64,000 bases of DNA from an uncultured Candidatus Saccharibacteria bacterium (GTDB lineage Bacteria > Patescibacteriota > Saccharimonadia > CAILAD01 > BJGX01), in assembly GCA_964425715.1 (NCBI GenBank), contig CAYRNO010000002.1, positions 5,443 through 69,442 of the forward strand, written 5' to 3'. The notes beneath the pieces are model-generated. The model searched no databases and had not been told where the DNA came from. It saw nothing but the letters and a program-made list of their open reading frames with translations. Below, one piece after another: positions 5,984 to 48,514 of the stretch. How positions within the stretch are numbered: position 1 is the first letter of the stretch; each line of letters begins with the position of its first letter. Made by a program: the position numbers and the translations under genes.

Positions 5984-6337
5984 TTATTTTTCTGTTTTGT
6001 CTTTAGACTTTTGATCTTTTTTGATCTCAGTGGTGTTCTTTTCGCTAATTTCAGTCTCTGCTTTGAGCATAGCAGCAGCTTCTTTTTTGCTAAGCGCTTT
6101 TACAGCTTTTTTAGTAAGTGCGTCTTTTTTGGATTCAGCAGCGGCTCGCTTGGCCTTGAATCGATCTACGCGCCCAGCGGTATCTACTAGCTTTTGTTTG
6201 CCTGTATAGAAAGGATGACAGCTACTGCAAACATCTACATTCATTTCAGCAACAGTTGATTTTGAATCAAAAGTAGCCCCGCAACCACTACAGGTGACTT
6301 TGGTATCTATATAGTCTGGGTGAATCTTGGTTTTCAT
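5984..6337 (-). CDS. rpmE: 50S ribosomal protein L31 (Zn-ribbon type) with Lys/Ala-rich C-terminal extension
   Basis: MKTKIHPDY..., paired CxxC motifs (CSGC, CSSC) and HPFYTGKQK. About 50 extra K/A/E-rich residues follow the conserved core. Confidence 0.9.
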
Positions 6338-6346
6338 GTAATCAAT

Positions 6347-6375
6347 ATAATAGCATTAAGTGGTATTAAATACAA
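6347..6375 (-). promoter_or_regulatory. sigma70-type promoter of rpmE (TTGTAT-17-TATTAT); near-leaderless
   Basis: On the minus strand the -35 is TTGTAT (6375-6370), the spacer is 17 nt and the -10 is TATTAT (6352-6347). Only 9 nt separate the -10 from ATG 6337, and there is no SD. Confidence 0.5.
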
Positions 6376-6384
6376 GCCTTAAAC

Positions 6385-7022
6385 GTGAAGAGAGCCCCGA
6401 CAAAAATCGGAGCCCTTATGAACTGTGTAGCAAAGTGGTGACCCTCTCGGGTTCGGGAGTCCCGAGAGGTTTGCCGAAGCAATGTCACCCAATCCAATTC
6501 AATTTATTGCAATACGTTACCCAATATTGCAATTGCTAATGTGTCGTTTACCCGAGTATATCACCCAATCTCCTTTCGGAGAATGGTGCCGCGAACGACA
6601 GCGCGGAGTCAGACCACTAGCACCATGCTAGCCTTGGGTGACTAACCCTTGGTACACGGATCGCAGTAGCGATCGGTATGGTGAGAAGCGGGTGCTCCGG
6701 TGGACGGCGGATCCGGTCCGGAGCACCCTTCGCAGGTATCGTACCCTTTGGTAGGGCAAGCTGGCCGGGGCGGGCCGGCTTGGGTCGGCGTCGGGAGGAT
6801 CCCGAGCACTCTAGATACCTGCGCGAAGTGGTGTGATACGGGTCGAGATTTTGTGCTCTCAACCATCCAGTCACAGGGACTGTTAACTACGTCGCTCCAA
6901 AGGAGTTTTTCTCACGTAGTCCAATATCACAATTGTTGCCATTTTGTGGCACTCACCATCGAGAATATGTATACTTTTCTCTCTGCAGTGAGTGCCACAA
7001 AAGGCACTATTTGTAAGGTACC
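6385..7022 (-). ncRNA. large structured noncoding RNA, class unassigned
   Basis: A perfect minus-strand promoter lies just upstream. The core is GC-rich (38/60 G+C at 6701-6760) in an AT-rich genome. It contains many perfect helices, and UUCG (6471-6482) and GAAA (6569-6582) tetraloops appear only when it is read on the minus strand. Long-range complementary 9-mers occur at 6732-6740 and 6814-6822, and an 11-bp helix pairs 6690-6700 with 6718-6728. A terminal hairpin sits at 6392-6415. The ORFs predicted here are Arg/Pro-rich nonsense. The ends are approximate. Confidence 0.65.
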
Positions 7023-7027
7023 GCTAC

Positions 7028-7056
7028 ATTATAGCAAACATTAGCGTTATTGTCAA
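7028..7056 (-). promoter_or_regulatory. consensus sigma70 promoter (TTGACA-17-TATAAT) driving the large ncRNA
   Basis: On the minus strand TTGACA is at 7056-7051, the spacer is exactly 17 nt and TATAAT is at 7033-7028. Both hexamers are perfect. The predicted TSS is near 7021. Confidence 0.7.
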
Positions 7057-7184: not shown

Positions 7185-10100
7185 ATGAAAAAAAGTAAAC
7201 CCAATTCTAACGGTATAGATATCCATGCCAAACACAAAAAAAAGGCTATAAAGCTCAATTTTTTACTTATAATCCTGTCTACACTTCTGTTTGGTTCATT
7301 AGCTATACTTACTTACTTGTTTGTACAGACAGAGAGCGCCAAGATTGATGCCAAAAACGCTCTTCAACAACAAGTAGAACTAGGTAATGCCAATGTAGTG
7401 AGTTATGTTACGGGGTATGAAAGATTCTTGCAGGTGTATAGAGCCAATCAATTGGAATTTTTGGCAATTATTATCATTGTCATAACAGGTACAGTATTCC
7501 TGATAGTGTATTTATACAAAGATCGTAAGCAAAGAAAATATCACAAACATCACTTCGAAAAATCTCATCACAATGAGCCGAAGCCCAATAAGATTCATAC
7601 TATTAGCAAGTATCGTGCTCCTTGGGAAAATATCTGGCTATTATTAGGCGGAGTATTGGTAGTAGCCCTGATAGGTATATTGGTCTTGAGGATTTCTCGG
7701 GCAAGTGATGAGATAGTACAAAATACTGCAAATCTAGAATCCTCAGCGCTTGAAGCTCAAGGGTACAAAAAGATCATATCATCAGCTGGATTTAGCCTGA
7801 TATACAACTTCAATCTATTGGATACTACGGCACAAACAACACCGGATAGTCAGCCTATTAGCTCACAAGAGCTATCAAAGGTTTCGGACTATACCATAGT
7901 CAAGATTTCTCCTAGTGAAGCTGATAGTGCATCATTAACTAGTACTAGTAGTGTACAGAATGCTGATCTGAAGTTTGAGACTACTGCTGATAAGGGCTTT
8001 TTCGACTCAGCAAAAACTCAATATGGCAATCTTAGTCAAGTAGAATTGGCAATTAGACATTTCGCACCCAAGAATGATGCCAATAATTTCGTAGAGAAAA
8101 CCAGCCAAACTGAGATAGAGATATCAGGTATCAAATATCAGGCGGTTGAGTATAAAATCGTAAATACCGAGTACGTGACCACCACTAGCAAGCTTACCCA
8201 ATATGTTGTAGTGGTGAATAATCAGCCTTTTTCGATTAGTCTGAGTGAATCAAGTCAGTCCATTCCTTCTCAGGTGCAATTGCTGCGCAATGTAATATCT
8301 TCAGTCAAATATGGAAGTGTTGCAGAGTTGAGCAGTAATACTAAACCACGACTTTCCAATGTTGCATATGCTGCCGAAGATAAGGGAGGGACTCAAACAA
8401 ATCCGGAAATATTGTCTCAATCTACAACCAATGTTCCAACGACATTGGTCAACGATACAGCATTGCTAGTTGTAGCCAAAAATCAACCAACGGTTGTTAG
8501 AGTAGGCACCAATACCTGTATGAATATCGATTTATTATTGCCAAATGGTCAAGTCGGATATTCGGCCAAAAATGCCTGCAATGCAGTGGTGGGTAGCGGC
8601 TCTATCATATCAAGCGATGGCTATATATCTACCAATGGTCATGTAGTATCAGATATTCCAGAGCTTGTTCTTCAGACATTTCTTAGTCTCAATACAGATA
8701 CAGCCAACCTCAGATCATATCTGCAGTATTTGGTAGATACAGGGGTGCTTACCAAGCCTCAGCTAGAAGCTTTGGCGCGACAGATTGCTGCCGGCAATAA
8801 ACAGGCAATTGAGAAATTCCTATCTACTACGTCCAAAATAAGTCCAGACAAGTACAAAACTAGTTCGGTTGATCGAAAATTCGTCATTCAGCTAAGCAAT
8901 GATCCTATAAAGGCTGAAGTCAACAAGACGGTAATAACAATACCTACCAGTGATACTAAGGTATCTGCTCAGCTCATAGATAAAGACTTTGATGAGCAAA
9001 CACTCAGACAATCTCTTATTGCAAATATCAAAGATCTCAAGACATCAGATGTAGCTATCCTCAAGCTTGATAGTGGAAGTAATTATCCTATCTCTACACT
9101 AGGTAGCCTGAATGAACAAAACAAATCCAACCCCAATAGTGGTAGTACCGTACTGGTAACTGCAATGGGTTTTCCGGGATTCATTGATGGCGGCTTGACT
9201 ACCAAGAAAAATACTACTATCCCATCTGCTACACAGGGAAAAGTCCTGGGGGTTGAGAGCATCGCCGAGAACAAATATCGTCTTATAGCTACAAATGTGC
9301 CAGCAGCTCAGGGTAATTCCGGAGGACCTGCTTTTGCCGAAGATGGCAGTATTATAGGGCTTGTGACTTATGTCGATCCAGGTGCTAGTGCTAAGTCTGG
9401 CAAAGAAAGCTTCGCAACTTCGAGTATTTTGCGTGATGTCAGTGATGTCAAATCGCTTCTTGAGAAGAACAATATTACTCTCAATACCAGTAGTACCGTA
9501 GACAGCACCTGGGATCAAGGAATTGAGAAATTCTCCAATGCTCACTACAAATCCGCCAATCAGCTCTTTACCAAGGCCAAGGCTGAGTATCCGGCCAATT
9601 ATCTAGCAGCTCAGCTTAGCTCTGTCGCAGAAGCTAAAATTGCTGCTGGTCTCGATGTACCAGAAATATCTCCAATGATTTCCGTATTGGTATTGTTATT
9701 TATAATTCTCTTGATTGTAGGGCTAGTAATAGTAATCATTATGACCGTAAGACATCGTAAGAAGGCCAAATCACTTCCGCCGTTACCTGATCAACCAATC
9801 AATACAAACGCTTCTATACAGCCCCCTGTAACTAATTCAACTGTTTATACTCCGAATACTACTGAGAATCCACCACCTCAACCTTCACAGATGACACCTA
9901 TTAGCGATTCATCCGTATCTCAAGGTCCGGCGATTGGGGCCAATATATCTATGAACCCTGCAGTCTCAATGTCCATCCCAGCTCCATCGGCTCAGGAGGC
10001 GGCTCAACAACAAACACCTCCAATCACCAATTCTGATTTGCAACATCCCAATACCTCGACATCAACTAGGCCACCAAATCCAAGCAATACCACTCTAGAC

Positions 10101-13024: not shown

Positions 13025-13606
13025 TTACAATAGACCAAGCTTGCGTGAACATGCAGGCCATGGAGACCAACCACGAGCGGCTTGGGTAGCACGAGCCTTG
13101 GCGTCTTGTACCTCTGGAGGTGCAAGGTCAGGTCGAGCATATCCGCCATAGTTAGCCCAAGTACGCATGTCGTACTGGTAGGCACCATAGTATCCGTTAC
13201 CGGTATTCTTGGTGTAGTCACCACCAGCTTCACAGAATCGAAGCTTGGCGAAAGCATCATCACCGCCTATTACGACAGGTTTTGCAGCAGGGGCTGAGTT
13301 TACTCGAGTAGCAGCAATTGCAGCAGCTCGATTAGCAGCTTCCTGGGCAGCAGCAGCGTCGGCAGCGGCCTTAGCAGCTTGAGCGGCTTTTAAAGGAGCA
13401 ACGACTTCTTGATCGAAGTTTCCTTTGTTGGCTTTGAGCTCAAGAGCTTCAGGTTGTGTGGTGTTGATTGTCAATGTGTAGTTACTTGGTACTACAGGTT
13501 GGGCTTCGGCAGCCTTAGCTGTATCGGTGATAGGGATATGTACCGTACTTATCACCTGGTTGGCAATCATTGCAAATGCAACAACTGCTTGACTGAGAAG
13601 GCGCAT
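13025..13606 (-). CDS. secreted Rpf-like (transglycosylase-like domain) cell-wall hydrolase
   Basis: Signal peptide MRLLSQAVVAFAMIANQV, then an Ala-rich linker. The C-terminal CEAGGDYTKNTGNGYYGAYQYDMRTWANYGG...GWSPWPACS matches the resuscitation-promoting-factor / transglycosylase-like domain pattern. It is locally GC-rich (67/120 G+C at 13021-13140). Confidence 0.8.
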   Translation of the reverse strand: MRLLSQAVVAFAMIANQVISTVHIPITDTAKAAEAQPVVPSNYTLTINTTQPEALELKANKGNFDQEVVAPLKAAQAAKAAADAAAAQEAANRAAAIAATRVNSAPAAKPVVIGGDDAFAKLRFCEAGGDYTKNTGNGYYGAYQYDMRTWANYGGYARPDLAPPEVQDAKARATQAARGWSPWPACSRKLGLL

Positions 13607-13739: not shown

Positions 13740-13768
13740 AGTATACCAAACATAAGCGTATTTGTCAA
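13740..13768 (-). promoter_or_regulatory. sigma70-type promoter (TTGACA-17-TATACT) of the Rpf-like gene
   Basis: On the minus strand TTGACA is at 13768-13763, the spacer is 17 nt and TATACT is at 13745-13740. This predicts a ~125-nt leader containing the hairpin GTTCTG...CAGAAC. Confidence 0.6.
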
Positions 13769-38070: not shown

Positions 38071-38101
38071 AGTATTTATAAAAGCTTAAGGTTAGTAGTT
38101 A

Positions 38102-38130
38102 TTGACAAATTATCTGTTTTGTAGTAGACT
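38102..38130 (+). promoter_or_regulatory. sigma70-type promoter (TTGACA-17-TAGACT) in the AT-rich spacer ahead of the first GC-rich gene
   Basis: TTGACA at 38102-38107, a 17-nt spacer and TAGACT at 38125-38130, followed by GGAGGGAGG-N9-GTG 38223. Confidence 0.5.
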
Positions 38131-38222
38131 CTTTCGTGACGAGATAGTGTGGAGTAATCCCGCTGTCCGTAGATGTTTCCAACTACTACCCGCCAGAATA
38201 TGGCGGAGGGAGGTCACTTTAA

Positions 38223-39614
38223 GTGACGACCGACGAACAAGTCGATCGCAAGATCGACGCGGCCGACGAAGAGCCGCAGCCTCGCACCGACTTGGGTGCG
38301 CAGTGGACCGCTTGGCAGCTGGCCGAGCGGTACAACCTGTGCATGCAGGCCAACGGTGTGGAGATGACGGAGTTCACCTGGCAGGAGATCCTGATGCTGG
38401 ACGGCTACCGCCGAAGTGGCATCGAACTCCGGTGCCTCGACGACGTCGAGCAGCATTCCGAACTTCTCGGTCCGAACACCAAGGTCGAGAAGAAGAAGGT
38501 GAAGGCTGCGCTCAAGCGGGCCAATGACCCGCGTGGGCTGTACATCGAGGCTCCGCAGGCCAAGATCGACGCTCTCACCAACCCGCCTGTCACGGCGGAC
38601 GACGAGAGCGACGACGACATCGACGGTGAACACGCTGTCGACACCACCGCCAGCTCTTCGGAGCCGTTGGTGGTCGAGCCGGAGCCGCAAGATGACCCCG
38701 ATGACCTCGGTGTCGGTGAGTACCTGGACGAACTGCTGGATCGTGACTGGTCCCAGATCGACACGTGGCTCAACGAGCGTGTCCAGCAGTTCAAGGAGCG
38801 CAACTTCGATCCGAAGGAGCCGAACGACACTGTGAGCGCTCTTCGTACCGAGATCGCCGATCTCGAGGTGGAGTTCGCTCGCCTGCTGCTGTTCGAGCTG
38901 GCTGCCCCGAGCGATCAGCTGTTCCCGGACTACCGCTCCAAGCTGCGGCAGACCCTCCTGCTGGAGGAGCTGCTCAAGCACGACGAGCGGTACATGGAGA
39001 TCATGAGCTCCGGCGAGCAGTCGGATGTCGACAACCTGCCCTTCCGGGCAGGCCAGGCAGCGCGTGCGCTGACCTATGGCAACCGCCGCCTGAACGAGGG
39101 CGATGACTATGAGGGTCGGGATCAGCTCCCGATCATCAGCTTCGTCGACGAGCGCAGGGGCAGGAACGCACCGGCCGACACGAGCAACTCGGATGAGCCG
39201 GAGGAAACCCCTCCGACAACCCCCGACGAGCCCGAGCCGCCCGAAGCCTCTGAGCCCCCCGTGGGTGAGGATGTGGACGATGAGCCCGAGCTCGATCTGG
39301 TGCTCGTCGACCCACCGGTCGACACGAGCAACTCGGATGAGCCGGAGGAGACCCCTCCGACGACCCCCGACGAGCCCGAACCGACCACTGTCGTCGTGAT
39401 CGAGCCCCCGGCCCCCGAGCCGGTGGTGGGCATCGCCGATGTCGAGCCCGAGCCGCCCGAAGCCTCTGAGCCCCCCGTGGGTGAGGATGTGGACGATGAG
39501 CCCGAGCTCAATGACGTCGACGACGACAGCGAGCTCCTCGCGGAACTCGACGGCCTGCTCACCAGCGGACGAGCGCGAGTCGCCGAGATGGCAGAGCTGG
39601 GTTTCACGGCCTGA
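38223..39614 (+). CDS. GC-rich gene 1: 463-aa highly acidic protein with duplicated Pro/Glu/Asp modules
   Basis: GTG start with a strong SD. 15 of the first 20 codons end in G/C, and G+C is 38/60 at 38223-38282. A 12-bp hairpin lies just downstream. The antisense 487-aa ORF is R/G/L-rich nonsense. No family recognised. Confidence 0.7.
   Translation: MTTDEQVDRKIDAADEEPQPRTDLGAQWTAWQLAERYNLCMQANGVEMTEFTWQEILMLDGYRRSGIELRCLDDVEQHSELLGPNTKVEKKKVKAALKRANDPRGLYIEAPQAKIDALTNPPVTADDESDDDIDGEHAVDTTASSSEPLVVEPEPQDDPDDLGVGEYLDELLDRDWSQIDTWLNERVQQFKERNFDPKEPNDTVSALRTEIADLEVEFARLLLFELAAPSDQLFPDYRSKLRQTLLLEELLKHDERYMEIMSSGEQSDVDNLPFRAGQAARALTYGNRRLNEGDDYEGRDQLPIISFVDERRGRNAPADTSNSDEPEETPPTTPDEPEPPEASEPPVGEDVDDEPELDLVLVDPPVDTSNSDEPEETPPTTPDEPEPTTVVVIEPPAPEPVVGIADVEPEPPEASEPPVGEDVDDEPELNDVDDDSELLAELDGLLTSGRARVAEMAELGFTA
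39177..39509 (+). repeat. intragenic duplicated modules (A: 39177-39235 / 39321-39379 near-identical; B: 39228-39293 / 39444-39509 identical 66-mers)
   Basis: Direct comparison of the sequence lines. Module A encodes DTSNSDEPEETPPTTPDEPEP and module B encodes EPEPPEASEPPVGEDVDDEPEL. Confidence 0.9.
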
Positions 39615-39630
39615 CACTGCCGAGAGGTTT

Positions 39631-39660
39631 CTTTGGAGGGGGAGCAATCCCCCTCCAAAG
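39631..39660 (+). terminator. 12-bp GC-rich hairpin after GC-rich gene 1 (no U-tract)
   Basis: CTTTGGAGGGGG (39631-39642) pairs with CCCCCTCCAAAG (39649-39660), with loop AGCAAT. Confidence 0.55.
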
Positions 39661-39768
39661 GAGCTGTAATTTAACAATTTATGAGTATCATCTGAAGCCG
39701 AATAGACATAGATTCGACTTCTGTAGTACCCATAAACCCAACCAAGCCAACCGACCTAGGAGGTCAAC

Positions 39769-40455
39769 ATGGCACAGTCAGATATCAACCAGAGGGTCGC
39801 GGAGATCCTCCGCGAACACGACAGACTCCACGGAGCGCACGCCGGCGTCGCCCGGCAGGTCGTGGATCACGAGGGTCGCCTCGCTGGTGTTCGCACCGAC
39901 GTCGATAGCGTCACGGACCGCGTCAACGAGCTCCTCGCCGACGACGGCCGCATCGCCCAGCAGGACGAGGCGATCGTCGCGGTGACCACGGAGTTCCGAG
40001 ATCACCGGGTCGAGGCCAGGCGTCGCCTGCTCGATCTCGAGTCGTGGCGCAACCGCGTCGACGGCAACTTCCCCTGGCTCCACTGGGGAGGAATCACCTC
40101 TTTGGGCTTCATGATCAGCATGCTGTTCTGGCGCACCGTGATGTACGCCTGGAACTGGCATCCCTGGCTGGAGGACCGTGGCGGGGCCAACTGGTGGGAG
40201 AACAACCAGACCGGTGTGCTCAACGCCCACTGGTGGGTGCTGGTGATCGCCAGCACCATCATCATCTCGGCCATCGCCTGGGCACTGCTGCCGCGTCAGC
40301 CACGTGACAACGGAGCGGGCAACAACGCCGACGCCAACGCCGATCAGACGGCCCAGGCGGACCGTGTCGGTCCCCTCGGGCCAGTCGGTACACCACCGCC
40401 ACCCCCGACCCCGCCTCCCGGCGTCAACACCGAGCAGCTCGCCGCGCAGCGGTAG
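39769..40455 (+). CDS. GC-rich gene 2: 228-aa coiled-coil plus two-TM membrane protein with poly-Pro tail
   Basis: AGGAGG-N5-ATG. High GC3. The N-terminal region is helical, the TM segments are ITSLGFMISMLFWRTVMYAW and WWVLVIASTIIISAIAWALL, and the tail is GTPPPPPTPPPGV. Confidence 0.7.
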   Translation: MAQSDINQRVAEILREHDRLHGAHAGVARQVVDHEGRLAGVRTDVDSVTDRVNELLADDGRIAQQDEAIVAVTTEFRDHRVEARRRLLDLESWRNRVDGNFPWLHWGGITSLGFMISMLFWRTVMYAWNWHPWLEDRGGANWWENNQTGVLNAHWWVLVIASTIIISAIAWALLPRQPRDNGAGNNADANADQTAQADRVGPLGPVGTPPPPPTPPPGVNTEQLAAQR

Positions 40456-40473
40456 AAGTTCGGTGGAAGCCGT

Positions 40474-40499
40474 CCTGGGGGAACGCAAGTTCCCCCAGG
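40474..40499 (+). terminator. 11-bp hairpin with GCAA loop after GC-rich gene 2
   Basis: CCTGGGGGAAC-GCAA-GTTCCCCCAGG. Confidence 0.55.
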
Positions 40500-40520
40500 A
40501 TGTGCTACTATCCTTATAGG

Positions 40521-40549
40521 TTGTAACTATTAGTAAGTTCTAATATAGT
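40521..40549 (+). promoter_or_regulatory. sigma70-type promoter (TTGTAA-17-TATAGT) ahead of GC-rich gene 3
   Basis: TTGTAA at 40521-40526, a 17-nt spacer and TATAGT at 40544-40549, in an AT-rich spacer. The ~85-nt leader contains mutually exclusive hairpins. Confidence 0.5.
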
Positions 40550-40640
40550 GACTTTTTCACTTTCTTGCCTTTGAAAGTGGAGAAGTGTTCTGTATTCGAA
40601 AGGCAATCCAATTCACGAACCCCAGAAAGGGGGTAGTACC

Positions 40641-41633
40641 TTGAACACCACCAGAGACAGAATGTCTGCGGCGATGATCGTCATCGCCGGAGCGCTGGGT
40701 CTGTTGCTGCTTCTGAGCGGGCTGGGAGTGATCCCCGTTGGGGCCAACCCCGGTCCGGAAGATCGGTGCCAAGGCGCCGAGGCCAAGTTCTACGCCTACC
40801 AGGCACGGAGCAACGGCCAGTTCGGTCCCGCCGTCACCACGGACAACGTCCAGGAGGCCGTTGCCGAGCTGTACTCGCGCATGGACTGCGACCCACTGCT
40901 TGCAGTGGTGATCGCGGCCGACGTGAGTGGTCAGTGGGGCAACGATGTCCAGCTGTACAACTACGCACAACGGATCCTGCGGGATCGGCAGGCGTGGGAT
41001 GCACTCGTGGCTCGCACTCGTGCGATCCTCGACCAGTGCAACCCGGTCTTCCGGACACGGTCGAACCGCTACATGACACTGGGGATGCACCGCGGTGCCA
41101 ACCCACAGATCATGCCAACGCTCTTCCAGGTGAGCCCCGACCGGCCCACCTTCCGAACGTTGGAGTTCGACTGCGGTGGTGGTCGCGTGGTGGTGCTGAA
41201 GCTGGATTGCGGGTTCCAGCCCGTGCATCCTTTCTTCAGCCTCATCTCGACCACGCCTGCGAACCCCGGTAGCACCCCGAGCATCAGTCCTCCCGGTACG
41301 CCGCCGACTTCGCCGCCGCCGACGTGGACGGTTCCGCCGACCACACCGCCACCGACGACACCGACGACGACACCGCCAACGACGGTGCCTCCGGGTTGCC
41401 CGACGGGACCGGACGGCTGCAAGCCGCCAATCCCACCGACACCGGCAACTTGCAACTTGCCGGACGACCTGTGCCATGGCGGCACAGGACCTCCGACACC
41501 GCGCCCGCCCGCTACGGTGCAGCCGACGCCGACGGTGGCACCGCCACCGGCACCGCCACCTCCTCCGGTGTACACGGTGCCCGGCCCGGACCCGACCACT
41601 CCGGTCACATCACCCTCAGGGGTGCCTGACTGA
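40641..41633 (+). CDS. GC-rich gene 3: 330-aa signal-anchored/secreted Cys-containing protein with long Pro/Thr-rich tail
   Basis: AAGGGGG-N7-TTG. The N-terminal hydrophobic segment is MSAAMIVIAGALGLLLLLSGLGVIPVGA. A ~190-aa domain with 6 Cys follows. The tail is PT-rich (TPPTSPPPTWTVPPTTPPPTTPTTTPPTTVPP...). Confidence 0.7.
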   Translation: MNTTRDRMSAAMIVIAGALGLLLLLSGLGVIPVGANPGPEDRCQGAEAKFYAYQARSNGQFGPAVTTDNVQEAVAELYSRMDCDPLLAVVIAADVSGQWGNDVQLYNYAQRILRDRQAWDALVARTRAILDQCNPVFRTRSNRYMTLGMHRGANPQIMPTLFQVSPDRPTFRTLEFDCGGGRVVVLKLDCGFQPVHPFFSLISTTPANPGSTPSISPPGTPPTSPPPTWTVPPTTPPPTTPTTTPPTTVPPGCPTGPDGCKPPIPPTPATCNLPDDLCHGGTGPPTPRPPATVQPTPTVAPPPAPPPPPVYTVPGPDPTTPVTSPSGVPD

Positions 41634-41686
41634 GGGTGGTATCCCAGGGCTTCGACTTCGGTCGAGACCCTGGAAGCCTCGATTCT

Positions 41687-41738
41687 CGGGTGCTCGTTCT
41701 CCTCACGGAGAGCGGGCACCCGGTCTCGGGGTGTTTTT
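41687..41738 (+). terminator. intrinsic terminator closing the GC-rich cassette
   Basis: CGGGTGC (41687-41693) pairs with GCACCCG (41716-41722), with an inner stem, then TTTTT at 41734-41738. It is preceded by a UUCG-looped hairpin at 41644-41673. Confidence 0.6.
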
Positions 41739-41886
41739 GATTAGAGCAAAAAACTATTCAAATTTATCAGATAAATATTGACAATAAGCATAAGTACTTA
41801 TACAACAAAATTATTACGACAATCTGTAATGAAAATATACGAATTTAACATAATATATTTAACCATAAAAAGTACTCCCAAAAGCA

Positions 41887-41915
41887 TTGACATAAGAATC
41901 ATGATATGATATGAT
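41887..41915 (+). promoter_or_regulatory. sigma70-type promoter (TTGACA-17-TATGAT) of the LPXTG surface-protein gene
   Basis: TTGACA at 41887-41892, a 17-nt spacer and TATGAT at 41910-41915. A weaker TTGACA-17-TACAAC lies at 41778-41806. Confidence 0.6.
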
Positions 41916-42037
41916 ACTCACCAGAACAGAAAAGTTACTTAAAAATTAAATATATCTGAATGAACTGCGCTTATTTCTTTTGGAAAGCTGTTGTACTTAA
42001 CAAATTAACTTAAACATCTTTTAAAAGGAGGTAGCTT

Positions 42038-46215: not shown

Positions 46216-46285
46216 TATTCAAGCATAACCTATTTGATTTAGTATAAAAAAATTGGTATAATATGATAGGTCAAAGGAGGGTGAC

Positions 46286-47398
46286 ATACAAATCAATACT
46301 ATAAAAACAAAATTATTTACAGCTCTAAGCATAGCTATAGTAGCTGTTTTGTTGTCTCTAGTATCATCTAGTGGTATTGCCTATGCCGATGAATTTGATG
46401 CCCAAATAAATGCACTTAAAACACAGATCAATCAAAATCAAGCTGCGGCCAATCAGAAACGCAACGAAGCAGATACACTGCAAAATAAACTAGATACTAT
46501 CAATGCCCAGATAAGAGCCGCCGAAGCTTCTCTGAATCTTACTAAAACTCAGATATCCAATACCAATCAGCAAATAGAAGATCAAAATAAAGAACTTAAT
46601 CGTCAAAGAAATATTCTTAAAGAAAACTTGCGAATTATCTACAAACAAGGTGAAGTTACTCCGCTAGAAATAATTGCATCTAGTAAAAATCTGAGTGATT
46701 TTATAGCACAACAACAATATTTTAACGCTATAAAAAATAAAATAGAACAAAATCTAATAAAAATTGATCAAATAAAAAAAGAACTGGACAATAAGAAGGC
46801 AGAATTGACCAGTCTGTCTGCTCAACAACAAGGACAAGTAGATTCAATAGCAACACAAAGAGCTGAACAGTCTAATATCTTGAGTCAAACCAGGGGAGAT
46901 GAAGCAAGGTATCAGCAGATAGTAAGTGAAGCTAAGAAGCAATTGACTGCCGCTCAAGCCGCTCAAGCCGCAAGTATTGCATCAGCATCTTCAAATAATA
47001 CTTATGGGGGAACCGGCGGATACCCTTGGGTAAATGCACCATGGCCAAACCTACTGGCTGATTATTGGAATTTTTATCAAAGACAATGCACATCGTATGC
47101 GGTTTGGAGATTTTCTGCACTACATCCTGGTAAACCTATACCTACCTGGTGGGGTACAATTGTTCCGACCAATGCCAAGCATTTTCCCGCACGCGCATCG
47201 GTAACTCCGGGATTTAGCGTGAGTTCTACCCCTCGAGTTGGAGACATTGCTATCTATTCCGCTGGCGAGTATGGGCATGCTATGATAGTAGAGAGTATTA
47301 ACGGCAACACCGTAAGAGTGAGCCAGTACAACGCTGGATGGGACGGCCGATACTCTGAGAGTACTTGGCCAATATCAGCGTTAACATTTATTCACTAG
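46286..47398 (+). CDS. secreted coiled-coil CHAP-domain peptidoglycan hydrolase (PcsB-like); start codon uncertain (probable ATA 46286, canonical TTG 46349)
   Basis: A long coiled coil precedes a C-terminal CHAP domain (QCTSYAVWRF...GHAMIVES). The frame is open from 46262. GGAGG (46276-46280) lies 5 nt before ATA 46286, and starting there restores a full signal peptide (QINTIKTKLFTALSIAIVAVLLSLVSSSGIAYA). Confidence 0.8.
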   Translation: MQINTIKTKLFTALSIAIVAVLLSLVSSSGIAYADEFDAQINALKTQINQNQAAANQKRNEADTLQNKLDTINAQIRAAEASLNLTKTQISNTNQQIEDQNKELNRQRNILKENLRIIYKQGEVTPLEIIASSKNLSDFIAQQQYFNAIKNKIEQNLIKIDQIKKELDNKKAELTSLSAQQQGQVDSIATQRAEQSNILSQTRGDEARYQQIVSEAKKQLTAAQAAQAASIASASSNNTYGGTGGYPWVNAPWPNLLADYWNFYQRQCTSYAVWRFSALHPGKPIPTWWGTIVPTNAKHFPARASVTPGFSVSSTPRVGDIAIYSAGEYGHAMIVESINGNTVRVSQYNAGWDGRYSESTWPISALTFIH

Positions 47399-47407
47399 GA
47401 GGAAATA

Positions 47408-48514
47408 TTGAATTTAGTTAGAAACAGAGTCATCACAAATCTGGGCATCTGGACAACAGCGATCATAGTCTTGTTGGCTGGATTTGTGTACAATCCTACA
47501 CAGGTCAATGCTGAGAGTGCACAGGAAAAGATTAATCGACTCAATAAAGAGATACAACAATATCAAGAAGCTGCAAATGCAAAACGCTCTGAGGCCAACA
47601 CCCTCAAAGACGTATTAGCTAATCTTACGGCCGAAATTACAACTGCTCAAAAGGCATTGGATTTGACCTCGGCCCAAATCAGCGAAAACACTGCGCAAAT
47701 AGATAGAGCCAATCAAGACCTCGATCGACAAAAAACTATTCTCAAAGACAATCTGAAGGTGGTTTATAAGCAAGGAGAGGTAACTCCAATAGAGATAATT
47801 GCTTCCAGTAAGAATCTTAGTGATTTTGTATCGCAACAAGAATACTATTCTGCTATCAAAAAGCGTATTGATGAAAATTTGGTCAAGATAAATGAACTCA
47901 AAAAAGAATTGGATACAAGACGCGCAGAACTTACTGAACTGTCTACCAAACAAAGAGGTCAAGTAAATGCTATAGCCGAAAAACGCGCTCAACAATCAAG
48001 TCTACTCGCTAAGACCCAGGGTGAGGAAGCGAACTATCAAAAAGTAGCCTCTGATCTTGCTGCTCAACGAAAACAAGCAGAAGACCAGGTGCGTGCACAA
48101 GCAGCAGCTGCGGTGGCGGCATTTCGATCAGGCAAATTAGTTAGCCTTGGCAATGTGAATACCGGTGACATAATAGGCTATATGGGAAGTACTGGTAATT
48201 CTACTGGTACCCATTTGCATTTTTCAGTCTTAAATTCTAGCGGTGGGTTTATCAATCCAAATGGATCTGGATTTAATTATGCACAAGCTACCACTGGAGT
48301 GGTAACTCAAAACTACGGCACTGCCACTTGTTCAGTGTGTGGATATAGTTTTCATAATGGTATAGATATAGCAAACCCATCAAATCCTCCAGTACGAGCT
48401 GTTGCTGCTGGACAGATCATTTTCAATGGCTGGGATCCATATGGATTTGGTCATAAGGTCATGATATTACATCCTAACGGCTATATTACCTTGTACGCTC
48501 ACCTACTTAATTAA
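47408..48514 (+). CDS. secreted coiled-coil M23 (LytM-type) peptidase (EnvC-like), paralogue of the preceding gene in its coiled-coil half
   Basis: GGAGG-N5-TTG start. The coiled coil is nearly colinear with the CHAP protein (VYKQGEVTPIEIIASSKNLSDF...). The C-terminal M23 motifs are GSTGNSTGTHLHF and HNGIDI. Confidence 0.85.
   Translation: MNLVRNRVITNLGIWTTAIIVLLAGFVYNPTQVNAESAQEKINRLNKEIQQYQEAANAKRSEANTLKDVLANLTAEITTAQKALDLTSAQISENTAQIDRANQDLDRQKTILKDNLKVVYKQGEVTPIEIIASSKNLSDFVSQQEYYSAIKKRIDENLVKINELKKELDTRRAELTELSTKQRGQVNAIAEKRAQQSSLLAKTQGEEANYQKVASDLAAQRKQAEDQVRAQAAAAVAAFRSGKLVSLGNVNTGDIIGYMGSTGNSTGTHLHFSVLNSSGGFINPNGSGFNYAQATTGVVTQNYGTATCSVCGYSFHNGIDIANPSNPPVRAVAAGQIIFNGWDPYGFGHKVMILHPNGYITLYAHLLN

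Follow-up and report, generated by a model that had tools for sequence, protein, structure and literature searches.

The window analysed here is a 64-kb stretch (64,000 nucleotides, nt) of contig CAYRNO010000002.1, from an uncultured Candidatus Saccharibacteria bacterium. The ribosomal protein gene rpmE is followed on its minus strand by prfA and prmC, and 5′ of rpmE there is an intergenic interval that ends at the divergently oriented gene of a membrane trypsin-like protease; a gene for a coiled-coil protein lies beyond the latter. A first-pass annotation, made from the sequence, had read the interval as a stand-alone, highly structured RNA gene of the minus strand. That reading is supported by the comparisons described below, and the interval very probably holds a real gene for a structured non-coding RNA (ncRNA). 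The features of the locus are in Table 1. The window locus is found identical in three Logan contigs, and the best relatives of its prfA are in Candidatus Saccharibacteria metagenome-assembled genomes (MAGs), with at most 71% identity.

Table 1. Features of the RNA gene and of its neighbours, in window coordinates
Feature	Position	Strand	Remarks
Promoter	7028..7056	minus	-35 TTGACA 7056-7051; 17-nt spacer; extended -10 TGcTATAAT 7036-7028; score 12/12
Whole conserved RNA block	6381..7027	minus	homology among relatives runs from ~20 nt 5′ of the -35 to the terminator
5′ leader GUAGCGGUACCUUACAAAUAG	7007..7027	minus	predicted single-stranded; invariant in 8/8 sequences of alignment A5
P1, 25-bp hairpin with AU-rich apical loop	6937..7006	minus	4 pairs changed on both sides; 96.5% of cells paired
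Four-way junction, closing stem P2 (6924-6928 / 6835-6839)	6835..6928	minus	P2 has a compensatory change
P3 hairpin, invariant GAGAAA internal loop	6885-6921	minus	compensatory change
P4 hairpin	6868-6882	minus	compensatory change
P5 hairpin	6841-6864	minus	invariant
Second multi-helix junction, 10-bp closing stem P6 (6814-6823 / 6731-6740)	6731..6823	minus	5 pairs changed on both sides
Hairpins within the P6 junction	6790-6806; 6757-6782; 6742-6753	minus	the last is UACC/GGUA
P10 hairpin, 11 bp + 5 bp, GGGUGCUCCGG-AC-CGGAU-CCGCC-GUCCA-CCGGAGCACCC	6690..6728	minus	nearly invariant, stem included
Fast-evolving 3′ domain	6416..6689	minus	alignable only with L088/L089, L115 and L106
3′-domain hairpins	6659-6674; 6617-6631; 6589-6606	minus	6589-6606 (CCGCG...CGCGG) common to L106
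GAAA hairpin	6570-6581	minus	loop region 6569-6582
Conserved UCGGGUAAACG	6545-6555	minus	
AU-rich hairpin	6508-6531	minus	
Three-way junction	6437..6490	minus	kept in window, L088, L115 and L106
Pa of the three-way junction, GGUGAC / GUCACC		minus	compensatory G-C to C-G
Pb tetraloop (UUCG) hairpin	6471-6482	minus	compensatory changes in 3 pairs
Pc hairpin, conserved loop CCCGAA	6443-6469	minus	only the outermost pair compensatory (C-G to A-U)
Terminator-like hairpin GGGCUCCGA-UUUUUG-UCGGGGCUC, then CUCUUCACGUUU	6381..6415	minus	hairpin 6415-6392; conserved in all variants
rpmE promoter, CTTGTAT-N17-TATTAT	6347..6376	minus	outside the RNA, just past its terminator; same element in strains with and without the RNA
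rpmE	5984-6337	minus	followed by prfA and prmC, also minus
Membrane trypsin-like protease gene, 1005 aa	7185-10202		divergent from the RNA
Coiled-coil gene, 129 aa	10206-10595		

The RNA gene is preceded by a flawless TTGACA-17-TATAAT promoter with a TG extension, and in this the first-pass annotation was correct. It is the sole perfect match in the window. Sites with one mismatch to the sigma-70 promoter number two, and about one such match is expected by chance. The promoter hexamers are unchanged in all homologues (loci L085, L086 and L088) and in a divergent version of the gene, L106. Transcription would start at about 7021-7022, 6-7 nt past the -10 element, and the transcript, terminator tail included, would be about 640 nt long. 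From a consensus promoter of this type, strong constitutive transcription of the gene is expected.

A second promoter, TTGACAAATACGCTTATGTTTGGTATACT (13740-13768, minus strand), is found 5′ of a 193-aa resuscitation-promoting-factor / transglycosylase-like gene (13025-13606). It is a near-match to the RNA promoter, spacer included, with 25 of 29 identities by BLAST in a frame shifted by 2 nt. This suggests a module that is shared or was copied.

The composition of the RNA differs from that of its surroundings. G+C amounts to 38 of the 60 nt at 6701-6760, exactly the figure given earlier, and the RNA core (6600-6860) is 62.5% GC vs 40.6% for the whole window. Folding of a 638-nt stretch of the RNA gives a minimum free energy of -274 kcal/mol, with z = -9.9 relative to dinucleotide shuffles. 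The opposite strand of the interval also folds well (z = -8.3). Because of this, the strand of the RNA was assigned from the promoter and from the G-U pairs of the conserved helices, which are compatible with the minus strand only.

The interval does not look coding, and the earlier view that it contains no credible open reading frame (ORF) holds. No ORF within it has a Pfam match, and an 85-aa ORF of the sense strand produced one marginal, low-complexity match among 1.84 billion proteins in a phmmer search. The variable columns of the alignment show no 3-periodicity (24, 34, 35; p = 0.30). In the GC-rich core, GC is flat over codon positions in all six frames, vs 0.73 / 0.40 / 0.82 for a high-GC gene of the same window. 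A 44-aa “hypothetical protein” (QG675_666, MAG GCA_030917065.1) is annotated opposite the 3′ domain of the RNA in L089 (7099-7233, minus strand), and also in L088, L090 and L092-L094. A protein search with this ORF, miscalled on the RNA in MAGs, returns only the ORF itself, and it is almost certainly spurious.

Relatives were reached via the neighbouring proteins and by one DNA pattern scan. The RNA was detected by nhmmer in about 20 metagenome contigs, which reduce to about seven distinct sequences. The forms are the window type, the L088/L089 type, the partial L095, the L085/L099/L098 type, the L086/L087 type, and L115, of which there is the 3′ end only. The divergent version, L106, occupies the same spot and has its TTGACA-17-TATAAT directly past the stop codon of the coiled-coil gene. 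It shares with the others the 3′ motif UCGGGUAAACG, the three-way junction and a homologous terminator, and its 3′ part matches L088 (nhmmer, E = 0.002).

Searches of 116 sequences (1.1 Mb) with nhmmer, using a single sequence and profiles, and with the covariance model R1 revealed no additional copies, either in the window or elsewhere. A first metagenome pattern scan returned nothing, though the pattern matches known loci derived from the Joint Genome Institute (JGI), so the collection is incomplete; a second scan returned one partial new locus, L115. Pattern scans of viral contigs showed no copies of the RNA. BLAST against 50,697 phage and 72,556 plasmid records, and IMG/VR pattern scans, detected no similarity. 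Since the metagenome collection lacks contigs that are known to carry the RNA, its true distribution may be wider than found. As presently seen, the family appears confined to one Saccharibacteria sub-lineage.

Neither the promoter hexamers nor the first 21 nt vary, and a 5′ domain of about 400 nt can be aligned throughout the homologues. No covariation-supported partner of the 5′ leader was found in alignment A5. The leader is followed by the P1 hairpin, the four-way junction closed by P2, a second multi-helix junction closed by P6, and the P10 hairpin. Helices, loops and motifs that the first-pass annotation had listed were all located in place, including the 13-bp helix 6989-7001 / 6945-6957, the long-range pairing of GCAGGUAUC with GAUACCUGC (6814-6822 / 6732-6740) and the 11-bp helix of P10 (6718-6728 / 6690-6700). 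An invariant unpaired sequence, AUCUAGAG (6809-6816), lies inside the second junction. Relatives of the L085/L088 type have an extra 51-nt hairpin between the two junctions, just 5′ of the P6 domain. In P10, one of the 16 pairs covaries (U-A / C-G) and the other 15 are constant, a pattern that is present in all type-I variants.

The covariation model of the 5′ domain consists of 118 pairs, and 97.8% of its cells are in standard pairs. Thirteen pairs have changed on both sides, vs 0-2 when the 3′ partners are slid by 1-3 columns, and the count of compensatory pairs was reached by none of 500 shuffles. Relatives thus exist in which the helices are kept via compensatory changes. Between the window and L086 the identity of the 5′ domain is 82%; for the same pair it is 76% for prfA, 79% for rpmE and 71.5% for the protease gene. 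The alignment shows a GC-rich 5′ domain of about 400 nt that is under purifying selection, with compensatory base-pair changes.

Three further interactions were considered and rejected. A pairing of GUGAGAA (6907-6913) with UUCUCAC (6681-6687) has no covariation behind it and is disrupted in L086. Palindromic loops had been candidates for kissing sites, but such palindromes will arise by chance in AU-rich loops. A complementarity of the 5′ leader to the 3′ end of 16S rRNA was judged to be at chance level; as the window contains no 16S gene, the comparison was made by hand with a generic Saccharibacteria 16S end.

The 3′ domain evolves fast, and those of L085 and L086 are unrelated to that of the window. 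The three-way junction near its end is maintained in the window and in three other loci, with compensatory changes in the stems (Table 1). The terminator-like hairpin displays compensatory changes in L106 and L086. A possible pairing of the 5′ and 3′ ends, GUAGCGG / UUGCUAC, exists in the window variant only. A tRNA or transfer-messenger RNA (tmRNA) split by an intron was rejected as a candidate; the 5′ end does not have the fold of half a tRNA, and relatives do not conserve the end pairing.

Four copies of a repeated motif, and a single complementary UCACCCAA, had led to the suggestion of pseudoknots or alternative pairings. The four GGGU(A/G)A copies are indeed present, vs 0.28 expected from mononucleotide shuffles (P ~2e-4), and UCACCCAA occurs once. 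However the repeats are specific to the window variant, with one copy in L088 and none or one in L085/L086, and only the UCGGGUAAACG copy is conserved. Pseudoknots of the repeated AUUGGGUGA with UCACCCAA are therefore not supported.

The repeats bear on the possibility that the RNA is a regulatory sponge or base-pairing RNA, acting through the GGGU(A/G)A motifs or through the invariant 21-nt leader. The excess of the motif would fit such a role, as would a single-stranded leader that is invariant in all type-I variants, and strong promoters are typical of titrating RNAs, e.g., CsrB and 6S. The lack of conservation of the repeats weakens this idea. In addition, no significant complementarity was detected elsewhere in the 64-kb window, where possible antisense targets gave matches at chance level only, and a conserved core of 400 nt and 12 helices exceeds what a sponge or a seed needs. 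A role of this type is considered unlikely.

The position of the RNA relative to its neighbours differs between loci. The common order is the coiled-coil gene, about 50 nt, then rpmE (L005, L102-105, L107-112), and in L004 and L113 an unrelated 145-aa minus-strand ORF is found between these two genes. The order in L106 is coiled-coil gene, RNA, rpmE. In the L085, L086, L088 and L089 types it is coiled-coil gene, RNA, protease gene (convergent with the RNA) and rpmE, and in the window the protease gene precedes the RNA. L084 has the coiled-coil gene, the protease gene and rpmE, and the RNA is missing. Among L004-L116 the spot between the coiled-coil gene and rpmE is empty, or has the 145-aa ORF, the RNA, a protease of 1005-1029 aa, or both RNA and protease; it behaves as an apparent integration or recombination hot spot.

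The genes of L084 are 94-97% identical to those of the window, and the block that is missing corresponds exactly to the segment from the -35 to the terminator. Because the RNA is absent between such similar flanks, this pair of loci shows it to be accessory and dispensable. Relics of the 3′ end of the coiled-coil gene and of the rpmE promoter are duplicated around the RNA cassette in both arrangements. These relics fit gain or loss by recombination between related chromosomes, and not transposition. The 5′ domains of L085 and L088 are about 89% identical and their 3′ domains unshared; L106 and L088 have the 3′ domain in common, and the 5′ part of L106 is not found by model R1. Since the similarities of the two domains are discordant between lineages, the RNA gene itself appears to be a recombinant mosaic.

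A second cassette is present in L085 (~7231-7730, minus strand), right after the RNA terminator, with an equivalent in L099. It has a perfect TTGACA-17-TATAAT and about 470 nt of GC-rich sequence, with putative coding capacity for one or two hydrophobic proteins, each of only about 40 aa (GGAGG Shine-Dalgarno, GTG start).

The most serious rivals of an independent RNA gene are a cis leader of rpmE and a divergent mobile intron. As a leader or attenuator of the rpmE-prfA-prmC operon, the RNA would respond to a signal (L31, zinc or translation status) and thereby set the level of read-through at the terminator. It does lie directly 5′ of rpmE and in the same orientation in the window, L106 and L115, and a hairpin with a weak U tail is found about 40 nt ahead of the rpmE promoter. 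However the cis leader is contradicted because in three lineages (L085/L097, L086/L087 and L088-L094) a convergent 3-kb protease gene intervenes between the RNA and rpmE, with promoter, 5′ domain and terminator of the RNA still intact. In addition, a conserved promoter of its own precedes rpmE in every strain, and most relatives, and L084, carry rpmE without the RNA. No Rfam model of an L31 leader matches, and the obligate position of such a leader in the rpmE 5′ untranslated region is not kept. The independence of the RNA from rpmE, which had been proposed from the promoter of the latter, is borne out, and a cis leader is improbable.

A mobile ribozyme or element RNA, i.e., a divergent group I or group II intron, a retron RNA or the guide RNA of an insertion sequence (IS), would account for the patchy presence of the RNA, for its shifts of position among close strains and for its absence from a near-identical one. 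Its size also fits an intron, and Patescibacteria are rich in divergent introns. In a defence scan of the neighbours with PADLOC, the protease next to the RNA weakly matched the protease component of the RT-Protease_XI retron, an RT-protease system; no reverse transcriptase (RT) was found there. Decisive against an intron is L084, because its empty site lies between genes and the promoter is missing along with the rest of the unit. What strains gain or lose comprises the sigma-70 promoter, whose -10 abuts the conserved RNA block, and the terminator, and it disrupts no host gene. None of the loci was seen to contain a gene for a reverse transcriptase, transposase, TnpB/IscB or homing endonuclease, and the recombination relics explain the movement.

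No intron, HEARO or retron-type model of Rfam matches; for group I introns this is weak evidence, as the Rfam model misses those of Patescibacteria. Divergent patescibacterial group I introns escape RF00028 (PMC13011429). These introns are like the present RNA in belonging to the same phylum, in missing the standard model, and in being structured, mobile and of similar size. They differ in lying inside tRNA or rRNA genes, whereas the RNA unit has its own promoter and terminator and interrupts no gene. A mobile element RNA is judged marginally more improbable than the cis leader.

Another alternative is non-functional foreign DNA, i.e., a decaying high-GC fragment from a host or phage that happens to lie behind a promoter. 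The same genome does have a 3.6-kb high-GC island behind a native-type promoter, L085 and L099 have another GC-rich cassette behind a perfect one, and the RNA is dispensable. Against this, essential genes next to the RNA are less conserved than its 5′ domain, substitutions in the stems of that domain are compensatory, and promoter and terminator are exactly conserved. The RNA interval also has no protein homology and none of the codon-position GC signal of the island gene. Foreign debris is thus a very improbable explanation.

The high-GC island itself is at 38100-41750, with 57-65% GC vs 41% for the genome, and contains three plus-strand genes. These are 38223-39614 (463 aa, GTG start, acidic and proline-rich repeats), 39769-40455 (228 aa, membrane) and 40641-41633 (330 aa, proline-rich). 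Codon-position GC of 0.73 / 0.40 / 0.82 identifies the island as foreign DNA, plausibly from a high-GC host or its phage. A native-type promoter, TTGACA-17-TAGACT, lies ahead of it at ~38103-38131. At its end there is a GC-rich folding element of about 110 nt (41634-41740, plus strand) with several hairpins, one of them capped by UUCG. The element ends in a terminator-like GGGCACCC...GGGGUGUUUUUG, and the enclosing gap (41634-42037) has z ~ -6. Its profile resemblance to the three-way-junction region of the RNA is not significant (E = 0.15). Elsewhere in the window, 46216-48181 is a stretch of about 2 kb (GC 0.40) without an ATG-started ORF of at least 90 aa; small genes, a pseudogene or a gene that begins with another codon could account for it.

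To compare the RNA with known families, all 4227 models of Rfam 15 were used at gathering thresholds and then with permissive filters. At gathering score, tRNA-Leu is the only match in the 64-kb window, and there is none in 13 Saccharibacteria prfA loci. At E <= 10 the RNA region and L106 gave only chance matches, which on the region are microRNA-precursor models on P1; at E <= 0.5, L085, L086 and L088 gave only chance matches to microRNA and small RNA (sRNA) hairpins. ARAGORN found only tRNA-Leu in the window and nothing in L085, L086, L088, L106 and L115. The earlier statement that the RNA is not assignable to a known class agrees with these results, and it quite probably belongs to no described family. 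Nothing relevant was found in the literature on large ncRNAs of Saccharibacteria or of the Candidate Phyla Radiation (CPR).

Specific motifs were also considered. The RNase P motifs P4 / CR-I GGAAAGUCC and CR-V ACAGAA..GGCUUA are absent on reading, and the RNaseP_bact_a/b models do not match. The lone RNase P-like resemblance, AACAGUCC, varies freely and becomes AACAGCUA, AACAGCCC and AACAGCCA in relatives. RNase P RNA is universal, whereas this RNA is missing in L084 and at the syntenic site of all other Saccharibacteria examined. For tmRNA, permuted forms included, no tRNA-like end, tag frame, or ARAGORN or Rfam match was detected in the window and homologues. Neither signal recognition particle (SRP) RNA nor 6S RNA has an Rfam match here, and the RNA is multi-branched and 3-4 times larger than these (6S is ~180 nt). 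In order of size, in being GC-rich in an AT-rich genome, in its strong promoter and in having a core with a variable periphery it does resemble RNase P RNA and tmRNA, but defining motifs and model matches are absent and it is not universal. A very divergent housekeeping RNA (RNase P RNA, tmRNA, SRP RNA or 6S RNA) beyond the reach of standard models is therefore the most improbable explanation of all, although the RNA has a strong promoter and is GC-rich and highly structured, CPR lineages have unusual RNAs, and the 64-kb window contains no RNase P RNA, tmRNA or SRP RNA according to Rfam. Of the two alternatives in the first-pass annotation, a very divergent tmRNA or RNase P RNA is not supported; a new large-ncRNA class agrees with the lack of an Rfam family and with the conserved fold.

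No covariance-model match to OLE, ROOL, GOLLD, raiA or HEARO was found among the 4227 families. The contexts of OLE, ROOL, GOLLD and HEARO (oap genes, prophage or tRNA clusters, an IS605-type nuclease) are also absent, the neighbours being the coiled-coil gene, the protease gene and rpmE-prfA-prmC. The present RNA has the features of what may be called a generic large structured trans-acting ncRNA, i.e., its own promoter and terminator, no coding capacity, and a multi-helix fold with compensatory changes. OLE RNA (RF01071) is found in the core genome of anaerobic or extremophilic Firmicutes, beside partner genes (oapA and others). It is similar in its length of about 600 nt, many conserved helices, stand-alone gene and restriction to one lineage, in being presumed to act as a structured ribonucleoprotein (RNP) rather than by base pairing, and in that its biochemical function was not known at discovery. 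It differs in that the Saccharibacteria RNA shows no covariance-model similarity to it, lacks a conserved partner gene in its vicinity, and is a dispensable gene that one of two nearly identical strains may be without.

The raiA motif RNA is about 200 nt long and widespread in Firmicutes and Actinobacteria. It too is a stand-alone structured RNA without known function, but its model does not match. Its cellular abundance is reported as comparable to that of rRNA and tRNA (PMC12968392). ROOL and GOLLD form RNA-only homo-oligomers (PMC12286853). They are large (~580-800 nt), ornate and patchily distributed accessory RNAs, and are the closest match in behaviour, being accessory and horizontally exchanged. 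Differences are that no model matches and that there is no prophage or tRNA-cluster context here.

The explanation that we favour, and consider moderately probable, is that the locus contains an independent gene for a non-coding RNA of about 640 nt, of a previously undescribed family, that acts in trans through its fold. The RNA would be transcribed strongly and constitutively from its consensus promoter. By analogy with RNAs of the OLE, ROOL, GOLLD and raiA type, its folded structure may serve as a protein-binding scaffold, or the RNA may be self-assembling or catalytic; a scaffold or ornate-RNA mechanism of this type is tentatively proposed. The RNA would be neither a cis-regulator nor a base-pairing sRNA. 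Action through structure is suggested because the size and conservation of the core exceed the needs of a seed-pairing sRNA, a sponge or an attenuator. The cassette may spread between strains via homologous recombination together with flanking genes.

Several points weigh against an independent gene that acts through its fold. Only about seven distinct sequences are available, all from close kin, and the effective sequence number of the covariance model is 0.88. The covariation comes from a small number of independent events, and relatedness by itself can be enough to exceed the shuffle control. The fold is thus supported but not proven in detail, because the sequences are few and closely related. 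The U tract of the terminator is weak and not called by a consensus scan, so that transcription may continue into rpmE in loci where it is the next gene. As the same genome has a high-GC island, the GC-rich core could also be partly foreign in origin. In the loci compared, no partner protein or conserved neighbour gene indicates a function. Transcript ends and abundance are deduced from the DNA alone, and the arguments for action in trans, a scaffold role and oligomerisation are all from analogy.

To our knowledge only about a dozen classes of bacterial ncRNA combine a length above about 500 nt with a complex conserved fold. Almost all of these large RNAs have proved to be ribozymes, RNP cores or, recently, self-assembling RNA cages. 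The RNA described here may be the first large “ornate” class specific to the CPR, a proposal that we hold as almost evenly balanced, with doubt slightly the stronger. Such a class would be modular, with lengths of 550-840 nt, a slowly evolving multi-junction core and an exchangeable periphery. It would have its own biochemical role, in catalysis, self-assembly or an RNP, and would recombine as a promoter-to-terminator cassette among episymbiotic Saccharibacteria. In public MAGs the region is either unannotated or has the spurious 44-aa ORF call. The gene would be one of few large RNA genes known to be accessory cargo that varies between strains, and the window and L084 form a natural presence/absence pair that offers an immediate handle on the role of the RNA. 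A further class of large RNA would be a test case in the Saccharibacteria, whose genomes are minimal and in which each retained kilobase is informative.

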